A stretch of 63,619 bases of DNA, the filler included, from Candidatus Nanoarchaeia archaeon (GTDB lineage Archaea > Nanobdellota > Nanobdellia > Woesearchaeales > DATDTY01), in NCBI GenBank assembly GCA_035290625.1. It is 6 parts of 6 records of this genome, joined end to end, with 100 filler letters (N's around TTAATTAATTAA, not from the genome) between each part and the next. Parts side by side here need not be neighbours in the genome. Positions count along the whole stretch, not along the records: positions 42,218 to 49,003 come from DATDTY010000019.1; 5 more parts are not named here. The stretch is one strand, 5' to 3'. Shown here piece after piece: positions 37,740-49,003 of this stretch (within the stretch, counting starts at the first letter, position 1; the number at the start of each line of letters is the position of its first letter). Both the position numbers and the translations under genes were made by a program. A model generated the notes under the pieces. That model had not been told where the DNA came from and did no database searches. It saw nothing but the letters and a program-made list of their open reading frames with translations.

Positions 37740-39608
37740 TTAGGAGCAAGCCCCTGCCAAGCAACCGCCAAAACAGTCAGAAAACGATGTTCCCCTCTTC
37801 ACGCCGCAATGCTGGCCATCGCAGCTGAGTGCATATCCCCAAGGCGTATTTCCATAACGATTCGGTATTGGCTGGTTGTTTCCATACCAGTACGCGCATG
37901 ACGGATCTGTTGTATTCCACGCTATCCCTGCATATTGTGTCTGAATACTAGGGCTGCATCTTCCATCATTACAGCCAGCAGTAAAGATAGCGCAATCAAC
38001 CTTAAGTCCGGTATGGGCTGAGGCATCTGCATTGCAGTAAAATTCCCATTGATATCTGGTGTCCACACAGTGATCTGTGAAATTTCCTTCCCATCCTGTC
38101 GTGTAGGTGGTTGTTTTGGTCATGTAACTGACTCCATCACTGTCTCTGCATTTGGCTGTAGCGTTCGCTGCAGGACAGCTTCCAAACCATGCGTTGATAT
38201 ACGTTGCTGTGCTGTCGCACCAGCATGCAGACTCACCAGTCTTCACTCTTCCTCCATGAGCGTAACAATTGCTGCAGAAATCCATATTGGTTGATGTGCC
38301 GCAATACAGGCCTGAGGTGTTTGATGTTTGATTCGTTGTTTGGTTGCTCACACTTTGGATGCAAGCCCCATTCCGGCATCCATTTGGACATTGTATTGTA
38401 AGATAATCATAGGGGGCAGCATAACAGTTGGGGTAGTCTGCGCTCGTGCAGTTGCTAACAATGCTGCATTGCGGATTATTTGGGTATGGATTTAAAGGAG
38501 TTTGAGTTCTATAGCAATCCAAGCAGACAGGCACATGCGCAGTCTGATTCTGATTTGGGCAGGTTAAAGAGACTGCAGTTCCATTTGCCAGGTAGATTGT
38601 TTGGCTTACGCAGCTAGAGCAGGTATTATTCATACATCCCTGATTTTTGCAACTTACAGGGACTATCGTTCCATACCCCAATGAAGCACATCCAGAATCG
38701 CCTACGGGGCAGTTGTCCACATATCCCCAATACACATAATTGGGCACAGGATTAGGAACTGAGGCTCCTGGAGGGTAACTGTAGATGCATCTCTTCTCAT
38801 ACAGATCAACAACAGCATTAGGATCTGCCGTGATAACAAGGTATGTTCGGCTGCTTATATCTAAAATATAGCCCCTATAGTACCTGCCATTTGCATCAAC
38901 AAGCGCAACACTCCCTTTGAGAGTCTGTGAATTCACGCCCACTGAATAACCGGGAATTCCATCTAACTCGCTGAATCCGAGGTTTTCCAAGCCTGCCGCC
39001 ACATTCAAATACTCAAGGCGATACCCAATTCCTCCAATAAAAAATGACTCACCGACATATATCGGAACACCAAGCCCTTTAACGCCGCTCGCATTTGCTG
39101 TAGCATTTTGGGTTACATTTGTACTTGGGGTGACATTCGTTCCTGATGTTGCGTTGGTGCCTGTCTCCGCGATGCAGTTTCCAGACGAACATACTAAACC
39201 ACCGGAACAGCCGCACACATCGCACCTGCTAATGAGGCTCCCTTGCTCGCAGTACAATGGTTTTGTGTCAGAGCACCTGCTATAAACGGTTGAGTCTGAG
39301 CATCTCTGCAGCACAAGGCTTGCGTTTTCTATTTTTGTGCTGATCGAATTAATAGAATAGCCGGAGAAATCCCCTTCGACAGAACAGTTGACATTTTCCT
39401 TTTCCTTATCAATACTCAAGTAAAAAACCAGAAGATCCTTAATCTCGCTTATGCTCAGCTTGGCGCTTCCAGGAGACTTAAAATACTCAAACAAAGCCTT
39501 CTTCAGGCTGCTTCTGAGATCCTTAACCCCGCAGACCTGGGCGTCTGCTGCAACAGCCAAGGCAAGAACCACCAGAAAAAAAACTGCAATTGTCTTAATT
39601 CGAACCAC
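37740..39608 (-). CDS. Large secreted Cys-rich surface protein
   Basis: Signal peptide; many Cys; N-x-T/S-rich linkers; C-terminal domain shared with 40728-42116. Confidence 0.8.
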   Translation of the reverse strand: MVRIKTIAVFFLVVLALAVAADAQVCGVKDLRSSLKKALFEYFKSPGSAKLSISEIKDLLVFYLSIDKEKENVNCSVEGDFSGYSINSISTKIENASLVLQRCSDSTVYSRCSDTKPLYCEQGSLISRCDVCGCSGGLVCSSGNCIAETGTNATSGTNVTPSTNVTQNATANASGVKGLGVPIYVGESFFIGGIGYRLEYLNVAAGLENLGFSELDGIPGYSVGVNSQTLKGSVALVDANGRYYRGYILDISSRTYLVITADPNAVVDLYEKRCIYSYPPGASVPNPVPNYVYWGYVDNCPVGDSGCASLGYGTIVPVSCKNQGCMNNTCSSCVSQTIYLANGTAVSLTCPNQNQTAHVPVCLDCYRTQTPLNPYPNNPQCSIVSNCTSADYPNCYAAPYDYLTIQCPNGCRNGACIQSVSNQTTNQTSNTSGLYCGTSTNMDFCSNCYAHGGRVKTGESACWCDSTATYINAWFGSCPAANATAKCRDSDGVSYMTKTTTYTTGWEGNFTDHCVDTRYQWEFYCNADASAHTGLKVDCAIFTAGCNDGRCSPSIQTQYAGIAWNTTDPSCAYWYGNNQPIPNRYGNTPWGYALSCDGQHCGVKRGTSFSDCFGGCLAGACS

Positions 39609-39852
39609 CTCTACAGCAGTATCCGAGCACCTGGCAGCAGGCCTCCTTTGTGACAATCCCGACCTCTCCCAGCCGGGTGCCGCAACTTCCTGCACTGCTT
39701 GCAGTCTGGCATGCCACAATCTGCAACTCTGATAATTCTGAATCCATTATTTGCGAAGCCTCTCCTGAGAAATCCTCAGAAACTTGTCTGCATCCTATAA
39801 TTGCCACTGCGAAAAGAAGCATCATGCACGTCCATAATCCGTGTATCGTCAT
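39595..39852 (-). CDS. Small lipoprotein with a 6-Cys module
   Basis: Lipobox-like IIGC; CQ...C...CC...CC. Confidence 0.7.
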   Translation of the reverse strand: MTIHGLWTCMMLLFAVAIIGCRQVSEDFSGEASQIMDSELSELQIVACQTASSAGSCGTRLGEVGIVTKEACCQVLGYCCRGGSN

Positions 39853-39898
39853 TAGCCTTGCCTCTACCCATCTTTCTTTCTTGTCTTTATAAATCTTT

Positions 39899-40477
39899 TC
39901 ACTGGCAACATAATGTATATTGGCTGCAGCAGAGATCCCTGTAGCCGCTGCCGAACAGGATATCAAGACCTTCGCAGAGGCCCCCATCTTCTCCATTCTG
40001 GCATATCGTCTCATTAACTGTCGTGCTTTGGGAAACCTTTAGCAGCAATTCCCCTTTGGCAGACCGGGGCAGCCCTCCCGGACCCTTCTTGTATTGGATG
40101 CTCAACGGCGTCCTCACCTTCTGATTGGCCGTTAACAGGCACTTGAGGCTAAAATCAGCGTAGCTGTTTTTTTCTATGTTCTGGCCTCCAAAATAACTGC
40201 AGACAGGGTCAACAGTCTCTATCGCTTCAACAAACACTACTGTAGTGACTGCATTTTTCAATCTTAGAATCACTCCTTCTGCATTCACACTGAAATCATC
40301 ACAAAGTAATCCAGATCCAGTTGCAAGGACACACTTCTCTGGCCCTAATTGCGCGGGGCTCAGGATATCAAAATATACCAAAGCGCCGATGACAATCAGG
40401 CTTATAACAATTACCATTCCATAATTCATCAAGAATTCCATAGCTGCCTGGCCTTTCTCTGCCATATACCCTTCCAT
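39899..40477 (-). CDS. Pilin-like protein with a class III signal peptide
   Basis: EKG/QAAMEFLMNYG followed by a hydrophobic helix. Confidence 0.85.
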   Translation of the reverse strand: MEGYMAEKGQAAMEFLMNYGMVIVISLIVIGALVYFDILSPAQLGPEKCVLATGSGLLCDDFSVNAEGVILRLKNAVTTVVFVEAIETVDPVCSYFGGQNIEKNSYADFSLKCLLTANQKVRTPLSIQYKKGPGGLPRSAKGELLLKVSQSTTVNETICQNGEDGGLCEGLDILFGSGYRDLCCSQYTLCCQ

Positions 40478-40620
40478 AGATTTTCGTTATTTAAATCTTC
40501 CTATCGCCAGGCTTAGCCCACTGTTGATTAAGGGCAAACTATCGTGCCTTGAATGAGACTTATCACAATGTTATTAAGAAAATAACGGGAAGCTGTGTAA
40601 GGGCAATCAATGTAAAAATG

Positions 40621-40675
40621 CAAAACCTTGAAATTTCATTCAAGGTTTTGGCTTGCTCAGCTTATCGCCGAGCAA
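40621..40675. repeat. Tandem hairpins (REP-like or terminator-like)
   Basis: Perfect 12-bp stem CAAAACCTTGAA/TTCAAGGTTTTG, followed by TTGCTCAGC/GCCGAGCAA. Confidence 0.55.
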
Positions 40676-40727
40676 AGCGTTTATTTTATTGGGAACGTTT
40701 CTGCTAAGCCAAAAATTCATATGGAGT

Positions 40728-42117
40728 CTAGCAACTAGGCGTGCCATTAATGCAGCCGCCTACACAGGTGTCAAACTGGGTTCCTGTTTTCACTCCGCAA
40801 TGCCCTCCGTCGCAGCTGAACACATATCCCCAAGGCGTGTTTCCATACTGGGCTGGTGGAACGGGCTGGTTGTTTCCATACCAATACGCACAGGCAGGAT
40901 TAATCGTGCTGAAATTGATTGCATCATACTGTGTCAGCCTCGTATTCGCGCAGCGGCCATCTACGCATCCAACGCTGCAGAAAGCTTGCTGTCCTGTATG
41001 CGTCCCATCAGATCTGCACATAAACTCATAAACTGTAGTTGTGGTTACACAATGATCCGCAAAACTGCCCCATATCTGCGAATCCTTTGGCGTGACAGTT
41101 CCTTTGATGTTATAAACTGCCCCTCCGTCGCTGTCAGAACAAAATGAGGTATTCTGGCTTGTGGTCTGATTTGTCGCATTCGTTGTCTGGTTAGTCGTCT
41201 GGTTCAAAGGCTGTGTGAAATTCGTGGCATTATTTGTCCTTGTCATTATCAAATAGTCTCTGTTGCCTACATCAAACGTAATGTTCCATCTAAAGGATCT
41301 CTGATCAAATGCGGCAGTGGTAAGGCTCGCATTAATCCCATTAGCAAATCCAAGGCTAAACCCATACCCGCTTGCTGGCTCGTCAAGTCTAACTTGTGTA
41401 TAGATGGTTCCATCTGAGCGAAGATAGGCGAGTTTATAGGTATGCCCATTAACCGTAACCAGATCATTCAGATAGATCCGATCTCCCAAACCCTTTGGAG
41501 CGGTTGAGGTATTGTCTCCAGCGATCTGTTTGTTTAGGGAAGGCAGGCATTCAATTTCCCTTCCACCAGACACAATAAACACCTTCACTTCCTCGTCAAG
41601 CCGCAGATTTCTAAGTGTTGCAAAGTAACGATTCAGCCTTCCAAAAACATCAGGCACCAAGGATTCTCGTCGGAGTGTGGTTTGGCTTATGCAGTAGCTC
41701 CGGTTTAAGTCAAATGGGCCACTAACCTCAATATCACAGCCAATATATCCGGTTCCATTAGCATCAGTATACATTACCGTACCAAGTGTTCTGCATGTGG
41801 CATTCGCAGTCCCTGTCGTATTTGTTGCATTTACAAATCCTGGTCCTTTAACATATGTCCCAAGCGTCGAGCCAGAGCCTATCTGGACAATTTCGACATT
41901 ATAGGTGCATCGTACTCCGGATGCTGCTGCGCAGAAGACCTGTCCACTCATCGTGGTTGTATTCCAGGCAACATTTGCATAGGTAAGCCCGTGCTGGCTG
42001 CAGAACGTAGCTCCAGTAACCACCCCATAATCAGCAGAGCGCTGTGCATCGAGGAGCGTGTCGCTGCTTGCCGTAGCACTTGGGTAGACAACGCTTTGAG
42101 GGCAGGTATCATTCAAA
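40728..42117 (-). CDS. Cys-rich surface protein (5' end lost at gap)
   Basis: Paralogous to 37740-39608 (KGLG-x2-IY segment, CSDSDG, CAYWYGNNQP...YGNTPWGY). Confidence 0.8.
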
Positions 42118-42217
42118 NNNNNNNNNNNNNNNNNNNNNNNNNNNNNNNNNNNNNNNNNNNNTTAATTAATTAANNNNNNNNNNNNNNNNNNNNNNNNNNN
42201 NNNNNNNNNNNNNNNNN
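42118..42217. other. Artificial contig linker
   Basis: Ns with TTAATTAATTAA. Confidence 0.99.
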
Positions 42218-42308
42218 CGTCCCTCACGGGGATATGTCGCTTTGAGCTGAGGCATTCGGAGCCGAGACTGGCGACAGCCACGAAGTGAGACTTTCACCTG
42301 CTGACCCA
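42218..42308. mobile_element. MITE-like hairpin element, copy 7 (partial, at contig edge)
   Basis: CCCTCACGGGGATATG is the reverse complement of CATATCCCCGTGAGGG in copy 4; CGAAGTGAGA as in copy 3. Confidence 0.6.
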
Positions 42309-42343
42309 AAACCTTTAATAACCCTCTTACCGTAAATTCTTCT

Positions 42344-42751
42344 ATGTCAAAGAAAGGGGAAGTGACGCTTCTTGCAGAGCTGGTCAAGATGACCCCCCAT
42401 ATTATTCTCCTCATTGTTGTCCTCTTAATTCTAACCAAATTCTACCTTGTCATCGCCAAAGAGGAAGAAACCCAGCCCCAGGTTGACCTGAAGCGGATTG
42501 TTGAAGAGATAGAAGGCCTTGAAAAAAGCCAAACCCTTGTTGTTCCAATCCTTGGAAAAGATTATGAGATTCAAAGAATTGAGAATGATCCAAGCAATCC
42601 GGAATGCAGAAGGCAGTGCCTTTGCGTCATTGAAGCCAAGAAAACCTGCAGAGTCGTTGAAACCCCAATCGCTCCCACCTCTCTCACCATCACCAGCCAG
42701 AAAACCCTGACACTCTCCTATGGCAATCAGGAAATTGAAATCTCTTCATAA
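42344..42751 (+). CDS. Pilin-like protein 1
   Basis: MSKKG followed by a hydrophobic helix. Confidence 0.75.
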   Translation: MSKKGEVTLLAELVKMTPHIILLIVVLLILTKFYLVIAKEEETQPQVDLKRIVEEIEGLEKSQTLVVPILGKDYEIQRIENDPSNPECRRQCLCVIEAKKTCRVVETPIAPTSLTITSQKTLTLSYGNQEIEISS

Positions 42752-43697
42752 AAAAGGGAATGCCCTGGAACTCGTCATACCGCCGATTTTCCAGATACTG
42801 CTTCCGATCCTCTTAGTCATGCTGCCATTGCTTGCATACACAAATTCCCTGTCAGACAACAAAACCTTTGAAAAGGAGTTTCTTGCAAATGACATTGCGC
42901 TCACCATCACTTCACTTGCATCGTTGAATGCTGACGCCGAGCTCAGCTACCTTCCAGAGCCTGGCTTCACAGCAATTATCCAGGAAAACAATGTACGGGT
43001 TGTCAGAGGGCGAGACCCTCTGGCATCAACAGCAGCCTTCTCTGCTCCCAGTCATATCCATGTTCTTCCTGCAGAGGTCTCCTTAAACGAGCCGGTCTTC
43101 TTTATCAAGCATGGGGATAGCATTGAGCTAACGAAAGAAAGAAAGGCTCTCTCAGGCCTTGCCTGCTCATTCGATCCAGCATACGAGCCAGAAGGAAAAT
43201 CCATCCTTATTGACCCAGGCCATGGCGGCTCAGACCAAGGCTTTTCTGCAAATGGCATCATCGAGTCAGAAGCAGTTACTGCTCTGGCCCAGCTCATCCC
43301 TGGGGAAAAAACACGGGAAACGAACAGGGATCTAAGCCTTGAAGAGCGGCTCCAAAAAGCAGAGCATGCAGACACCACCCTCAGCCTGCATCTCGGGCAA
43401 GCATCCCCTTCATCCTCGCCTATCAAAGTCTTCTTTTCTACAGCATCCTCTCCTCAAACAAAAGACCTTGCCTGCAGGCTCGCATCCAGGCTCGAAGATG
43501 CTCTCCCAAACACAGGCGCAGCTATACTTCCGGTCATTCCCCAGGATTTGGATCCCAATGACCCCAAAAAAATACTCCTTGATGGAAAAACTGCAGTGCT
43601 CATAGAGCTCGGGAATGTAAACAATGCAGATTTTGTCAGTGAATTCAACCAGCAAAAAGGTGAGATTGCAAATGCGATGGTTTCAGGCCTCTCGTAA
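42720..43697 (+). CDS. Pilin-like protein fused to an N-acetylmuramoyl-L-alanine amidase (Amidase_3) domain
   Basis: KKG/NALE plus a TM helix; ILIDPGHGGSDQG, IIESE, LSLEER, SLH and AVLIELG motifs. Confidence 0.85.
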   Translation: MAIRKLKSLHKKGNALELVIPPIFQILLPILLVMLPLLAYTNSLSDNKTFEKEFLANDIALTITSLASLNADAELSYLPEPGFTAIIQENNVRVVRGRDPLASTAAFSAPSHIHVLPAEVSLNEPVFFIKHGDSIELTKERKALSGLACSFDPAYEPEGKSILIDPGHGGSDQGFSANGIIESEAVTALAQLIPGEKTRETNRDLSLEERLQKAEHADTTLSLHLGQASPSSSPIKVFFSTASSPQTKDLACRLASRLEDALPNTGAAILPVIPQDLDPNDPKKILLDGKTAVLIELGNVNNADFVSEFNQQKGEIANAMVSGLS

Positions 43698-44166
43698 AGC
43701 CCTGCTTGGAGAAAACCTCGATATGGTGATCATCATACCTCTTATTGCTATCATTGTCTTTACTGTTGTCTCTGTTGCAAACGCTTCTCTTGCAAAAAGG
43801 CTCGATACAAACTACCTTGAAGAGCGCCTCCTTACAGAGCAGGTCATTGCCTCGCTTGCATATACCGATTCAACGGGTTACACCATGCCAAACTCTGTTG
43901 ACCTTGGCCTCTTCCGGCAGGAACTCCTGCCAGCCCAACGCAGCTTCAGGCTTGCCTTGAAGCCAAATGACAGGCCTGAGGCGCAGATCTCCAGCCAGGA
44001 TTTTGAGGATCAGTATCCCTTGCGCGGCCTTTCATTTATCCTCCTAACAAAAACAGTGTCTATCAGTGTGATAGACGGGTCTCAGGCCTATCCCGCTGCG
44101 CTCACCATTGAGCAGCTCATACCGAAACAGAGGGCATTCAATATACAGGAGGATCCTGATGAATAA
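43672..44166 (+). CDS. Pilin-like protein 3
   Basis: RKA followed by a hydrophobic helix; overlaps its neighbours. Confidence 0.7.
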   Translation: MRWFQASRKALLGENLDMVIIIPLIAIIVFTVVSVANASLAKRLDTNYLEERLLTEQVIASLAYTDSTGYTMPNSVDLGLFRQELLPAQRSFRLALKPNDRPEAQISSQDFEDQYPLRGLSFILLTKTVSISVIDGSQAYPAALTIEQLIPKQRAFNIQEDPDE

Positions 44167-44578
44167 AAAAGCATTTCCAAAATACTTGAACCTTCTCTTA
44201 AGCATAGTCCTGATCGCCTTCTTCTTTGTAGCGTTCTTTATGTGGTATTCCTATGACGCAAATCAGGAGGCAGATGCTGTGGCAGCCTCAATGGCTGGTA
44301 TTCAGGGAGCCCAGCTGATGTCCAGCTATCTCCTCTCTTCCTATGAAGGAGTTCCGATGGATGAGCTCATCGCCTCTTTTTATCTCACGGAAGATGAAAC
44401 CCAGCTCAGGCAAGCAACCCAGGCATTCTTCTCTTCTATCTACCAAAACCCCTCCTGGGCGCTCACTGTAGGGGATGAAGTTATCACCCAGGGCAATCCA
44501 CAAGGCCAGGAACAGACACTCCAGATGCCTCTCCTCTCTCCAGCTCAAACTATCCCTGTAACACTCCAACTCCCATGA
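44159..44578 (+). CDS. Pilin-like protein 4
   Basis: MNKKA/F followed by a hydrophobic helix; GGAGG SD. Confidence 0.75.
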   Translation: MNKKAFPKYLNLLLSIVLIAFFFVAFFMWYSYDANQEADAVAASMAGIQGAQLMSSYLLSSYEGVPMDELIASFYLTEDETQLRQATQAFFSSIYQNPSWALTVGDEVITQGNPQGQEQTLQMPLLSPAQTIPVTLQLP

Positions 44579-45462
44579 GCAAAAAAGGATTTTCCATGCC
44601 TGTAGTCCTTGCGGTAATTGTAGTTCCTGTTGTCCTGCTCAGCTTAGCCATCCAGATCAATGAAAAGCTTGGAACAGAGCAACAGACAAGAGTCATTGGA
44701 AGGCAAGCAGCCTCAATCCAGGAAGCAAGGCAAACACAGCTGCAGCTCCAGACCACTATCCCAATCGCATTGAAAAACGCAGCCTATCAGGCACATTTTG
44801 ACATTGCAGAGCAGGGAGCAACATTCCAGTTTGGCGACTGCGGCCAGGCGAACGGAATCGCCTTGTGGAATTCTCCAGAAAGCTGGACAGGCCATTCCTG
44901 CATTCCAACACCTTCATCAATCAAAGATGCATATTCCAGATTCCTCAGAATCCGCCTTGGTGCATACCTTGCAGCTATCAATTTTCCGGAAGAAGGCTAC
45001 TATTTCCTGATTCAGGATGGCGGAGTTGTAACTGCCATAGCCATCTCTTCGATGAGAACCCCAATCACTGCCGGAGGTGAAATCGGGCAGCTCGCGTTCA
45101 AGCCAAATGCCAGGACCAGCATCCCCTTCAATTTCAATATCTACGGGCACGCTGCAGACGACGCAAAACAGCTCCTCAGCAATGTCTTTGAATGCCAGTC
45201 AGAAGGCTTTCTTCCTTCAGCCTGCGTTGAAAGGGCAATGACCCTCGCTCAAACGCCATGGACGCTCACAGCAAGCGAAAACTCCATCTATTTCTTTGAA
45301 GTCAATACAGGCTACTCATTTCCAAAAGAGGCAAACGGTATAATCCAGAACGAGCCGGTGGTCATCAAGTTTAGCCTTGCCATTCCTGACCTGTTATCTG
45401 GCCAACAATCTTTCCGGCCGCCTCTCCAGCCATCGCCTGCAACAATCCGGTCCGCAACCTGA
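44575..45462 (+). CDS. Pilin-like protein 5
   Basis: MSKKG/F followed by a hydrophobic helix; ATGA overlap with the previous gene. Confidence 0.75.
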   Translation: MSKKGFSMPVVLAVIVVPVVLLSLAIQINEKLGTEQQTRVIGRQAASIQEARQTQLQLQTTIPIALKNAAYQAHFDIAEQGATFQFGDCGQANGIALWNSPESWTGHSCIPTPSSIKDAYSRFLRIRLGAYLAAINFPEEGYYFLIQDGGVVTAIAISSMRTPITAGGEIGQLAFKPNARTSIPFNFNIYGHAADDAKQLLSNVFECQSEGFLPSACVERAMTLAQTPWTLTASENSIYFFEVNTGYSFPKEANGIIQNEPVVIKFSLAIPDLLSGQQSFRPPLQPSPATIRSAT

Positions 45463-45480
45463 ATGCCTCTCAATATCTAC

Positions 45481-45619
45481 TCTGGAGCGAGCCCAGCATC
45501 CTTTCTGCGAGCTTCTTCGCGCTCATAACCACTGCTGACAGAGGGTAGGCCCCTTCGGGGGTGTCAGCAATCGCAGATATAACCACAAGCGAGCCCGATG
45601 CTGATTGGCTTGCTCCAGA
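45481..45619. mobile_element. MITE-like hairpin element, copy 8
   Basis: Termini TCTGGAGCGAGCC/GGCTTGCTCCAGA; core shared with copies 10 and 11; direct repeat TCTCAATATCTACTC at 45468-45482 and 45622-45636. Confidence 0.8.
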
Positions 45620-45678
45620 CATCTCAATATCTACTCCATAACATAAAACTTTATAAACAAACCAACTGACCATGGTGT

Positions 45679-46662
45679 ATGATCAAGATTCCTTTCCAGG
45701 AGATTATTAACAAAATAAAGGAAGCCTCTGATCTTTCAGAAGAAGAGATCCACACAAGGATAGACGAAAAAACCAGGCAGCTTTCTGGGCTGATCAGCAA
45801 GGATGGCGCAGCCCATATCATTGCAAATGAGCTCGGCATCAGGGTCATCGACCAGGTCTCAGGAAAGCTCCAGATCAAGAATATCCTCTCTGGAATGAGG
45901 TCTGTCGAGACCGCAGGAAAAGTCCTGGAGAACTATGGGGTCAGGGAATTCAATTCTGCAGGAAGAGAAGGAAAGGTTGCATCCTTTCTCCTTGGAGACG
46001 AGTCAGGAACAATACGCGTTGTTTCCTGGGGGGCTACTGCAGATATTGCAGGTCAGCTTGCTCCGGGATCTATTGTCAAGATCGTCTCAGGCTATGTCCG
46101 CGACAACAGGGGATTTATCGAGGTTCATGTCAATGAGAAATCAAAGCTTATCGTCAATCCTGAGGGCATTGCTGTAGGAGACCTCAAGCCGGAGATTGCA
46201 AGAAAAAGCATCAAGGATTTGAAGGATGGAGACCGTGACATTGAGATCTTCGGGACCATTGTCCAGGTCTTTGAGCCGAAATTCTTCGAGGTCTGCCCCG
46301 AATGCGGATCCCGCGCAAGGCTCGAGGGCTCTGAGTATCGCTGCAGAAGCCACGGATCCGTCGTTCCTTCCTATTCCTATGTTACCACGATTGTGCTGGA
46401 TGACGGCACCGAGACGATGAGGATTGCATGCTTCAGGAAAGAGGCAGAATCCCTTTTGGGAATTTCGCAGCAGGAGTTCCAGCAGATCAGGAAGGATCCG
46501 GGGGCGTTTGAGCCATGGAAGACTGAGCTGCTCGGCAACCAGATCATTGTGAAGGGAAGGTGCAACCACAACCAGATGTTTGACCGCCTGGAATTTGTTG
46601 CAAGCTTCCTCAACACCAGCCCAAATCCGCAGGAGGAGATTGCCCGTCTTGAAGCCAAATGA
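45679..46662 (+). CDS. rpa: Replication protein A (OB folds and Zn finger)
   Basis: GDESGTIRVVSW, CPEC...CRSH and LDDGT motifs. Confidence 0.9.
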   Translation: MIKIPFQEIINKIKEASDLSEEEIHTRIDEKTRQLSGLISKDGAAHIIANELGIRVIDQVSGKLQIKNILSGMRSVETAGKVLENYGVREFNSAGREGKVASFLLGDESGTIRVVSWGATADIAGQLAPGSIVKIVSGYVRDNRGFIEVHVNEKSKLIVNPEGIAVGDLKPEIARKSIKDLKDGDRDIEIFGTIVQVFEPKFFEVCPECGSRARLEGSEYRCRSHGSVVPSYSYVTTIVLDDGTETMRIACFRKEAESLLGISQQEFQQIRKDPGAFEPWKTELLGNQIIVKGRCNHNQMFDRLEFVASFLNTSPNPQEEIARLEAK

Positions 46663-47114
46663 TGGCCAGGACTCATGTTGCTTTTGGAATCCTTGTTGGA
46701 TTGTTTTTTATAACTCCTTACTCTTTTTTTAATAAAATTGTTTTCATGGCATTCATTATCATTGGAAGCTTGCTTCCTGACATTGACACTCCCAAAAGCA
46801 AGCTAGGAAAGAAGATAAAGCCAATAGCCCATCTGTTTTCATTCCTCTTTGGTCACCGCGGCATTCTCCATTCCATTTGGCTCCCTGCTGCGTTATTGAT
46901 CATTCATTATTATTTTTTTAGCAATACTATCCTGTTCGCTTTGGCAATTGGCTGCATTTCACATTTAGTCTTAGACTCCTTCACAATCCAAGGAATAAAC
47001 TTCATCCACCCTTTCCAGAAGCTTCATGTCTCTGGGTTTGTGGAGACGGGAAAGATCTTTGAGTTGGCGGTATTCTTCATTATCATATCTATGATTATAG
47101 TAAAACTCCTATGA
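46659..47114 (+). CDS. YdjM-like membrane metal-dependent hydrolase
   Basis: TH, LLPDID, HRGILHS and SHLVLD motifs. Confidence 0.9.
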   Translation: MMARTHVAFGILVGLFFITPYSFFNKIVFMAFIIIGSLLPDIDTPKSKLGKKIKPIAHLFSFLFGHRGILHSIWLPAALLIIHYYFFSNTILFALAIGCISHLVLDSFTIQGINFIHPFQKLHVSGFVETGKIFELAVFFIIISMIIVKLL

Positions 47115-47221
47115 GCGGCAGCTTAGAACATCCAGGATAATCTTTCTCTAAAAAGAGGGAATCCTGCTACCATGCCAAGGAAGATAATGTTTGTCCAAGA
47201 AGAGCAAATCCTACTACCAAA

Positions 47222-47308
47222 CCCACTCGACACCCCTAACCTCTTCAAATTCTCTAAATACAGCCCTCCTGCCCCTAAAAACCATTTCTCACTCCCCACT
47301 CGACACCC
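47222..47308 (+). repeat. 14-bp direct repeat CCCACTCGACACCC (2 copies) upstream of a promoter
   Basis: Copies start at ~47222 and ~47295; TATTTAAA follows at ~47319. Confidence 0.6.
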
Positions 47309-47437
47309 TCGGATGAGCTATTTAAACAACCCCGTCCTATGAGTAGCCTGTGTACCAAATTCCCATCCCTGGGATCAAGTAAGATCCATAATCAAGGGGA
47401 TGTTGAAACAAAACGCGAAAGCAAGGAGGTTGGTAAC

Positions 47438-47719
47438 ATGGAAAACGAGGGAAATATCCCTGAAAGGAAATTCAGCACTGGAGCAATCAGTGCAACGGTC
47501 TGGAGAAACAACGGCAAGTCAAAGCAGGGAAGCAATTTTGAATTCCGCACCGTGAGCCTGCAGCGAAGATACGCTGACAAGAACGGCGAGTGGAAGACTG
47601 CAAACTCCTTCCGCCTGAATGACCTGCCAAAGGCAGCGCTTGTTCTGCAGAAAGCCTATGAGTATGTCGTGATGAAAGAACCCGACTTCATAGCCCCTGT
47701 GGAAGAGCTTGTTATTTAA
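47438..47719 (+). CDS. Small putative ssDNA-binding protein
   Basis: GGAGG SD; ISATVWRN...SLQRRY...GEWK...DLPKA, a beta-rich family seen in DPANN. The function is inferred. Confidence 0.7.
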   Translation: MENEGNIPERKFSTGAISATVWRNNGKSKQGSNFEFRTVSLQRRYADKNGEWKTANSFRLNDLPKAALVLQKAYEYVVMKEPDFIAPVEELVI

Positions 47720-47775
47720 TTTTTTTTATCATCCATATACAGTACAATACAAAAACTAAAAAAGGTGAAGCTATT

Positions 47776-48765
47776 ATGAAACAAAAACTCATTCAAATGG
47801 AGCAGCCTCAGGAAGAGATGCCGAAGGAAAAGACTTTGTATGATCTGCCAGGAGTAGGTCCGGCAACCGCAGAGAAGCTCGAGCAGGCAGGCTTTACGGA
47901 TCTTATGTCTGTTGCAGTCGCAACACCCGGGGAATTGATGGATGCGGCAGGGCTCACAGAGGTAGGAGCGAAAAAGATCATTGTTGTCGCAAGAGCATCC
48001 CTGCAGATGGGGTTTGAGTCAGGGGCCGACCTGCTCAAGAGGAGAAGCAACGTTATCAAACTATCAAGTTCCAGCAAGGAGCTTGATAAGCTGATGGCAG
48101 GCGGCTTTGAGACAGGCTGCATTACAGAAGTCTACGGAGCCTATGGATCAAGCAAGACGCAGATCGCCCACCAGCTTGCAGTCAATGTCCAGCTCCCTAA
48201 AGATCAGGGCGGCGCAGAAGGCGAAGCAGTCTACATTGATACAGAAAACACCTTCAGGCCTGAGCGCATCACCCAGATGGCAAAAGGGATGGGCCTTGAC
48301 CCAGAAAAAGTCCTTGAGAACATCAAGGTTGCCAGAGCCTTTAACTCTGACCACCAGATGATTCTGGCAGAGAAGGTGGAAGACCTTATAAAAAAAGGAG
48401 TGAACGTCAGGCTTGTTGTTGTTGACTCCATGACTGCCCACTTCCGCGCAGAGTTCATTGGCAGAGGCACCCTTGCTGAGCGCCAGCAGAAGATCAACAA
48501 GCATATGCACGTCCTCCAGAGGCTTGCAGACCGCTACAACTTCGTCGTCCTTGTGACCAATCAGGTCATGGCAAGGCCAGACATGTTCTTCGGTGATCCG
48601 ACTGAGGCGATTGGAGGCCACATCGTAGGCCACAACTCCACATTCAGGATCTATCTGCGAAGGGGAAAGAAGGGCAGCAGGGTAGCCAAGCTCGTTGACG
48701 CCCCTAACCTTCCGGAAGGAGAGGCAGTCTTCCAGGTTCTCGAGGAGGGAATCAGGGATCTTTGA
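47776..48765 (+). CDS. radA: DNA repair and recombination protein RadA
   Basis: DLPGVG HhH; GAYGSSKTQ, YIDTENTFRPER and GRGTLAERQQ motifs. Confidence 0.97.
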   Translation: MKQKLIQMEQPQEEMPKEKTLYDLPGVGPATAEKLEQAGFTDLMSVAVATPGELMDAAGLTEVGAKKIIVVARASLQMGFESGADLLKRRSNVIKLSSSSKELDKLMAGGFETGCITEVYGAYGSSKTQIAHQLAVNVQLPKDQGGAEGEAVYIDTENTFRPERITQMAKGMGLDPEKVLENIKVARAFNSDHQMILAEKVEDLIKKGVNVRLVVVDSMTAHFRAEFIGRGTLAERQQKINKHMHVLQRLADRYNFVVLVTNQVMARPDMFFGDPTEAIGGHIVGHNSTFRIYLRRGKKGSRVAKLVDAPNLPEGEAVFQVLEEGIRDL

Positions 48766-48866
48766 TCCTCTTTTTTTCTAATTTTTATTTTTATATGTCC
48801 GCGCATCCTGCATCCTGCGCTGGACCCAGTATATGCCACGGCTCTGCGCATTTCAACATCGCAACC

Positions 48867-49003
48867 TGTCTTATCCCGAAACTATTTCCCTACGGTGAGT
48901 TACATTGGAGCATGAAACTCACCAGAGGGAAGCTTATGGAGACCATAAGGCGCAAGAATGATGGCTGGACAACCTATCAAGCGAGGAAAATAGCCCGTGT
49001 TAG
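48867..49003 (+). mobile_element. IS481-like element: left end and transposase N-terminus (truncated at gap)
   Basis: Starts TGT; ATG 48912 gives MKLTRGKLMETIRRKNDGWTTYQARKIARV (HTH-like). Confidence 0.5.

Follow-up and report, generated by a model that had tools for sequence, protein, structure and literature searches.

Archaea have no peptidoglycan of their own. We analyzed a run of five pilin-like genes (A to E), the second of which encodes a predicted peptidoglycan amidase, in a window of 63,619 nucleotides (the whole stretch of DNA under study, six contigs joined by N linkers) from the 1.37-Mb, 84-contig genome of a Candidatus Nanoarchaeia archaeon of the Woesearchaeales (GCA_035290625.1). 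The closest described systems are cited here by PMC number. Strock et al. 2025 (PMC12352652) reported bacterial-type wall hydrolases in archaea, prominent in Nanoarchaeota, and halophile examples that kill bacteria; their survey, which required a catalytic and a wall-binding domain, described secreted enzymes with a patchy distribution, many of them encoded on plasmids, in about 5% of genomes. The GH23 lytic transglycosylases of fam00969 occur in Woese- and Pacearchaeota, for which a predatory or epibiotic lifestyle has been proposed (Castelle et al. 2021, PMC8204110; Vigneron et al. 2022, PMC9723730); their median length is 1947 aa, and 79% have a SignalP signal (PMC8204110). Epd pili, which belong to archaeal type IV filament (T4F) system 1, take up DNA in Methanococcus (PMC13705601, PMC4858521). 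In Saccharibacteria, ultrasmall symbionts, type IV pili bind the wall of a bacterial host (PMC11623550, PMC9894109), and PilB of S. sanguinis carries a functional module fused behind a pilin moiety (PMC8179133).

Judging from sequence comparisons, A–E represent a conserved pilin-like cassette with exchangeable, putatively peptidoglycan-directed cargo that extends across a major DPANN order. We lean towards the view that it is a type IV minor-pilin cassette whose swappable cargo is used on bacterial walls, in effect an armed pilus. The series of overlapping pilin-like genes, the last of which encodes a large subunit, resembles the gene logic of minor pilin and pseudopilin tip complexes (GspI-J-K, PilV-W-X), and the N-terminal domain of B matches GspI, EpsI and XcpV best. 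It differs from those complexes, and from modular pilins such as PilB, in that no sequence family match was found and in that wall-hydrolase modules sit on several subunits and are swapped between relatives. With the enzymes of PMC12352652 it shares bacterial-type wall hydrolase domains in archaea, whereas here the domain is fused to a pilin-like protein, within a near-universal single-copy cassette adjoining RPA and RadA. No recognised wall-binding domain was found in B or in the scanned orthologs, which fall outside the modular peptidoglycan hydrolase (PGH) definition of Strock et al., and the word 'pilin' is absent from the main text of that paper. Work on fam00969 concerns the same lineages as ours and likewise infers that bacterial walls are attacked or used for attachment; the window proteins, however, are 135–325 aa long and lack SLT, as against about 1950 aa, GH23 and SignalP, and are set apart by description. 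In the searched text of PMC8204110 and PMC9723730 we found no link to pilins, no amidase and no M23. Class III signals, one ATPase gene with two platform genes, and pilins located away from the ATPase recall archaeal T4F system 1, but none of the five window proteins has the +1 Gln that typifies Epd pilins, and the word 'peptidoglycan' is absent from the main texts of PMC13705601 and PMC4858521. Saccharibacteria offer a parallel of bacterium on bacterium, and a pilin–hydrolase fusion was not found in the passages of PMC11623550. A description of a pilin–hydrolase cassette was not found in the literature searched, which covered few subscription papers and lay outside the supplementary tables of PMC12352652 and PMC13705601, where some of the proteins could be listed. 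The lifestyle claim has precedent, to which a concrete, testable apparatus is now added.

A–E (42344–45462) are five open reading frames (ORFs) on the same strand with head-to-tail overlaps. The original prediction, made from the window sequence, described five overlapping genes, each opening with a K/R-K-G/A motif and a hydrophobic helix, and this proved correct: all five passed a filter for these features that only 31 of the 1462 ORFs of at least 70 aa in the genome passed, and the five are consecutive. It had also placed a C-terminal Amidase_3 domain with a full set of active-site residues in the second gene. Gene B (42720..43697, +; 325 aa) indeed consists of a mature pilin-like domain (42759..43160, +), a Cys linker and an Amidase_3 domain (43203..43691, +) with the metal and catalytic residues H168 (43221), E182 (43263), H224 (43389) and E296 (43605) all present; the metal Glu in the motif IIESE is the first one, E182. 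Pfam assigned residues 162–324 to Amidase_3 (PF01520; E 3.3e-14, 53.7 bits against a cut-off of 27), and the model of B (pLDDT 92.7) aligned with 4rn7 over 159 residues (Z 21.9, rmsd 1.8; Foldseek E 1e-11). The same columns are H in 114/114, E in 114/114, H in 109/114 and E in 114/114 of a set of outgroup amidases. Amidase_3 enzymes cleave the MurNAc-L-Ala bond, and the intact-looking zinc amidase on the window's B should cut it as well. Among family-specific cysteines, C252 co-occurs in intact copies with the linker residue C149; a C149–C252 disulfide is our guess. In two genomes (L003:1483-2723, L104:3-1230), separate pilin and amidase ORFs take the place of gene B, perhaps through a frameshift or an assembly error.

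In the relatives, gene E is the main polymorphic slot. Among 98 E proteins of at least 240 aa from 120 loci, 55 had a match of E 0.001 or better to a family of peptidoglycan hydrolases, which in 50 of them exceeded the cut-off: M23 (24), SLT (22), M15/VanY (5), NlpC/P60 (3), GH73, 3D and M74 (2 each) and Amidase_2 (1), some proteins carrying two. Elsewhere, there was a hydrolase domain in 13/73 genes just downstream of E, SLT, M15_4 or M23 in four of 50 selected B proteins, and comparable domains in 5/92 long A, C, D or small-pilin-type proteins; in some genomes the gene A ortholog has SLT, M23, Amidase_2 or 3D cargo. An intact amidase or another such domain was present in 66 of the 93 loci with a complete E (in one, a C39-like domain alone). 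Other cargo was less frequent beside an intact amidase (3/10 versus 56/83; Fisher p 0.034, with kin not independent), a pattern that the window locus fits, having an intact amidase and a bare E (44575..45462, +; 295 aa), a large pilin-like subunit in which a Pfam scan detected no cargo domain. Two or more cargo types on E were held by 4 of the 23 families with several genomes, according to a cargo tree that is weakly resolved and served for within-family contrasts only (L059 is unlabelled there, its upstream ORF being taken as E). When positions were compared by hand in the first 80 genomes, gene B accounted for 13 of 17 Amidase_3 matches (one of them a split ORF) and the cassette, which makes up less than 1% of the genome, for 19 of 70 M23 genes. 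The idea that the system addresses bacterial walls, already part of the original prediction, is strengthened by the relatives, in which peptidoglycan hydrolases of unrelated families fill this cassette.

Further hydrolase genes were noted around and beyond the cassette. Large multi-enzyme genes follow E at L081, L091, L119, L136 and L159 and combine metallophosphoesterase, GDSL/SGNH, M15, NlpC/P60, NAGPA, GH3, M23 and Amidase_3 domains, possibly an envelope-degrading toolkit. Two SLT genes lie on other contigs of the window genome, in which no M23 gene was found. Contig C13 (L318:847-9027) holds a second surface operon with a class III-like 753-aa gene, an Ig-like 1187-aa gene and a gene for a 790-aa SLT protein, a possible counterpart of the GH23 family described by Castelle et al., and on contig C72 (L321:224-3363) an SLT gene is convergent with one for an 800-aa membrane-anchored alpha/beta hydrolase (lipase-like).

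The scaffold of the cassette is widespread. A profile of the B N-terminal domain matched 249 of 301 genomes of the order (here, the Woesearchaeales-like order), nearly always in single copy; seven unpublished genomes are included in this count, without which it is 242/294, and are used for no other claim. Gene order is recurrently A-B-C-D-E-RPA-YdjM-(SSB-like)-RadA, in other orders of the class too. Among 116 longer loci, gene C was present in 111, of which 100 had B-C-D-E in order. Gene C (43672..44166, +; 164 aa with the ATG at 43672 as start, whereas an opening at 43624 gives the longest ORF) encodes a pilin-like core subunit of a family with constant size (about 150–200 aa) and the motif Y-P-G-x-I-D; it was matched in 195 of 251 genomes across the class, many of the matches outside the order being weak. 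Gene D (44159..44578, +; 139 aa) is likewise a pilin-like core subunit of near-constant size. In other orders of this class, the only one in the phylum sample, 40 loci were picked, mostly from stronger matches; B-C-D-E occurred in 28, 30 of 33 B genes were short, and no B gene had an amidase match. None of the E proteins there had hydrolase cargo (129 proteins scanned in the 40 loci); A proteins carried SLT plus M23, SLT plus Amidase_2, or M23 in three genomes, and one upstream gene carried SLT.

Several lines of evidence support pilin-like N-termini, as proposed originally, and a pilin-like fold. The N-termini of A–E read MSKKG/E, ..LHKKG/N, ..SRKA/L, MNKKA/F and MSKKG/F, each followed by a hydrophobic stretch. 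All five have a charged residue at −2 and G, A or S at −1 before the hydrophobic helix, the rule given in PMC4371748, and a pattern for a strict FlaFind-type four-residue core matches two of the five. The +1 residues are E, N, L, F and F; across the A–E families Q is the commonest +1 residue, yet a minority. Our loose filter (a basic motif ending in G or A, then a hydrophobic helix, with one or two helices in all) was passed family-wide by 100/118 A, 136/145 B, 112/138 C, 120/136 D and 98/109 E proteins (81–94% per family). The model of the B N-terminal domain (pLDDT 93.4) has a long kinked helix followed by a beta-meander, and its five top matches among 48,161 chains were EpsI, GspI, a Thermus competence pilin, XcpV and PilA4 (Z 4.2–4.9; EpsI Z 4.9, rmsd 3.7, 65 residues aligned), with other type IV pilins further down; pilins make up 15 of the first 27 rows, at Z of 4.9 or less. 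Foldseek gave no match to this domain at E 0.001 or better, and no Pfam family consistently matched either the B N-terminal domain (108 members) or gene C (111 members). Weak leads lay under the search bar, from E to DUF7286, TadE and DUF4845 and from C to DUF7287 and DUF7285; the DUF7287 profile had no match to gene C in the window genome. Modelling of A, C and D as a complex with the B N-terminal domain gave a score of 0.00, which counts neither for nor against one. Genome-wide, the pilus machinery comprises three T2SSE ATPases over the cut-off, four T2SSF matches and one A24 peptidase, encoded on contig C73, and in a genome of another order an A24 prepilin peptidase gene (L313:5462-6286) lies between the cassette and RPA. 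A second pilin-like run was seen on contig C22 (L319:1-8088), where a TSP3/Ig gene of 1019 aa is followed by genes of 194, 383, 205 and 237 aa and the run ends in small pilins paralogous to those on contig C57.

On the reading that we favour, A–E would be minor type IV pilins that join the small upstream pilins in a filament on the cell surface and probably make up its tip. The A24 prepilin peptidase would cut behind K-G or K-A, and a VirB11-type ATPase with TadC-like platform proteins would assemble the filament. C and D would be constant scaffold subunits, and B, E and, less often, A modular ones, with enzyme domains predicted to be aimed at bacterial peptidoglycan. In relatives, the B amidase has often decayed to a probable binding module or been lost, with another hydrolase on E. 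Exposed at the tip, the cargo would cut or bind bacterial peptidoglycan, so that the small archaeon could grip and locally open a bacterial wall and reach the contents of its host or prey. More speculatively, DNA or nucleotides may be among the things taken, a possibility suggested by the fixed RPA-YdjM-RadA link and a TctA gene. A bolder proposal, which we hold only tentatively, is that most Woesearchaeales are cross-domain epibionts or micro-predators whose core type IV pilus, with a polymorphic, repeatedly exchanged hydrolase tip, breaches living bacterial walls and draws out DNA and other contents, the cargo type helping to set host range.

A number of observations weigh against this reading. 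The first is the fate of the amidase, which we followed in B copies of 147 genomes drawn from the best 150 of 257 N-domain matches (107 weaker matches lie outside the set; two unpublished genomes and one second copy were excluded), a set that includes the window genome and the seeds and therefore leans to intact copies. Conservation of the fusion, suggested originally as a check, held for the N-terminal domain and only in part for the amidase, with an amidase fold in 97 copies, nothing in 40 and another domain in 10. As a conserved active enzyme the amidase largely failed the active-site comparison, since just 19 of the 97 keep all four residues and 78 are decayed (three residues in 9, two in 17, one in 33, none in 19); among the best full-length homologs (n = 147), selected with a profile that includes the amidase, 72 keep all four. 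Moreover, intact copies have Gly (18/19) after the third metal ligand, where 70/114 outgroup amidases have Asn, and Asn (16/19) after the catalytic E-x-G, where 94/114 have Phe or Tyr, so that the substrate groove appears to differ at two positions; Gly at the former position in 28/114 outgroup amidases means that the Asn of H-x-N is not invariant. Decay affects other cargo too, since a simple pattern search found both HxxxD and HxH in only 11 of 23 M23 domains on E. No hydrolase was recognised in 27 of the 93 loci with a complete E, and one was recognised in only 4 of the 40 other-order loci. In the first 80 genomes, 51 of the 70 M23 genes lie outside the cassette, which is therefore a hotspot but not the sole arsenal. 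The pilin Z-scores are under the level that the search tool calls reliable, so that the fold call for the B N-terminal domain is supportive and not conclusive. No ATPase or platform gene lies inside the window genome's cassette, although scattered pilus genes, with pilins apart from the ATPase, are reported to be normal in Nanobdellati (PMC13705601). Finally, class III signals also occur on proteins that are not pilins, such as Sulfolobus substrate-binding proteins (PMC4371748).

A quick tree was built from 45 outgroup amidases and 43 archaeal amidase domains that retain two or more of the four residues; in it, a branch (SH-aLRT 92) separates the archaeal domains from the outgroup. We therefore rejected a recent transfer of the amidase, and claim no donor. 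One old acquisition followed by repeated decay would fit these data. Within the archaeal side, intact and decayed copies are interleaved (14 changes, on a poorly resolved tree). As far as sequences can tell, then, the amidase is not the conserved function of the cassette, and the recurring element appears to be the target, peptidoglycan. The same data bear on the possibility that the cargo consists mainly of wall-recognition adhesins, with catalysis dispensable and the archaeon a commensal or syntroph that uses the pilus only to hold on to a bacterium. Retention of the fold in the 78 domains that lack at least one catalytic or metal residue, the interleaving, and the absence of a motif from about half of the M23 domains would all suit this explanation. 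It is at odds with the 19 copies, from many families, in which the four residues all persist although mutual identity is about 30%, and with replacement cargo that comes from catalytic families, neither LysM nor PG_binding having been found in the scanned orthologs. We regard it as unlikely, though as one of the two main rivals, together with the DNA-uptake explanation that follows.

Genomic context raises another explanation, namely DNA uptake by a competence-like pilus; its hydrolases would scavenge the walls of dead bacteria or clear wall debris, and no living bacterium would serve as host. The next three genes downstream of E include RPA in 63 of the 111 own-order loci and in 19 of the 40 other-order loci, D or E lies upstream in 23 of 39 independently picked RadA-anchored loci with at least 6 kb of upstream sequence, and the scaffold is mostly cargo-free in other orders. 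The window genome also has, on another contig, a member of the TctA family, which natural transformation in Methanococcus requires in addition to type IV pili (PMC10133366). Gene order alone, however, does not establish shared function, and a filament tether with repeated cargo swaps (4/23 families) fits diverse living targets better than bulk scavenging; we consider this explanation quite unlikely. The TctA gene, on contig C39 (L320:1278-4021), has a nearby gene for a 112-aa single-helix protein without a Pfam match, recalling the Methanococcus transformation pair. A requirement for YdjM in archaeal transformation was not borne out by the literature searched.

It is also conceivable that no filament exists and that A–E are membrane-anchored or bindosome-like surface enzymes that borrowed a class III signal, as the Sulfolobus proteins, the strict core in only two of five and the profile comparisons among A–E might suggest; the last of these found similarity at the N-terminal region only and so do not support paralogy of the heads. 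Considering that the B N-terminal domain has a helix plus beta-meander pilin topology, that pilins head its structural matches and that small major-pilin-like genes precede the cassette, we judge this explanation improbable. That the substrate is an archaeal polymer, either host pseudomurein or the S-layer glycan of host or self, seems hardly credible, since, although the groove residues are unlike those of bacterial amidases and the described DPANN hosts are archaea (PMC8204110), the chemistry common to SLT, GH73, 3D, M74, M15, M23, NlpC/P60 and two amidase folds is that of peptidoglycan, and the linkages differ in pseudomurein (PMC12352652).

Contig C19 (window 42218-49003) carries A–E and, downstream on the same strand, genes for four conserved neighbors. 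These are RPA, an OB-fold ssDNA-binding protein (45679..46662, +), a YdjM-family membrane protein (46659..47114, +), a small conserved protein without a Pfam match (47339..47719, +), which by its appearance we take to be SSB-like, and the RadA recombinase (47776..48765, +), which marks the contig as archaeal. Most of the 80 closest RadA relatives (61–73% identity) bear the label Ca. Woesearchaeota, Nanoarchaeota or Nanoarchaeia, in agreement with the DPANN assignment made originally; the label 'uncultured Methanosarcinales' on many relatives in one third-party set is taken to be a mislabel. Contamination was rejected because archaeal RPA and RadA share the contig and the B fusion is seen repeatedly across the order. 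The operon extends beyond the five genes first proposed, real as these are. Within the window it starts with gene A (42344..42751, +; 135 aa, a class III-signal pilin-like protein with a Cys-rich head), 126 bp inside contig C19, and continues upstream on contig C57, outside the window, whose last 141 bp are identical to the first 141 bp of C19. On the strand of the operon, C57 carries two small pilins followed by genes of 302, 64 and 1022 aa. The last of these (L317:1808-4873), directly upstream of gene A, encodes a class III-signal protein with a Cys-rich N-terminal part, a hydrophobic Gly/Ala-rich C-terminal stretch and no convincing Pfam family; similarly large genes precede gene A in several relatives. 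Given the position of the operon start, the genes left of 42118 are unrelated to it, the N linker (42118..42217) being the junction between contigs C17 and C19. The unrelated C17 (window 37740-42116, −) encodes a pilin of the KGQ type (39899-40477) and two surface proteins rich in Cys and Thr, which have a C-terminal repeat in common; Pfam matches were absent.

The Woesearchaeales are one of the largest uncultured archaeal groups, and their hosts are a standing question; DPANN life on bacteria has been stated to be an open one (PMC8204110). A near-universal single-copy cassette whose variable slots are refilled with predicted peptidoglycan hydrolases points to long-term contact with bacterial walls. 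The cassette also yields purifiable enzymes, cargo-based prediction of the target's Gram type or stem chemistry, and enrichment baits. If the proposed function is true, enzymatic cargo would be added to the known roles of type IV pilins.

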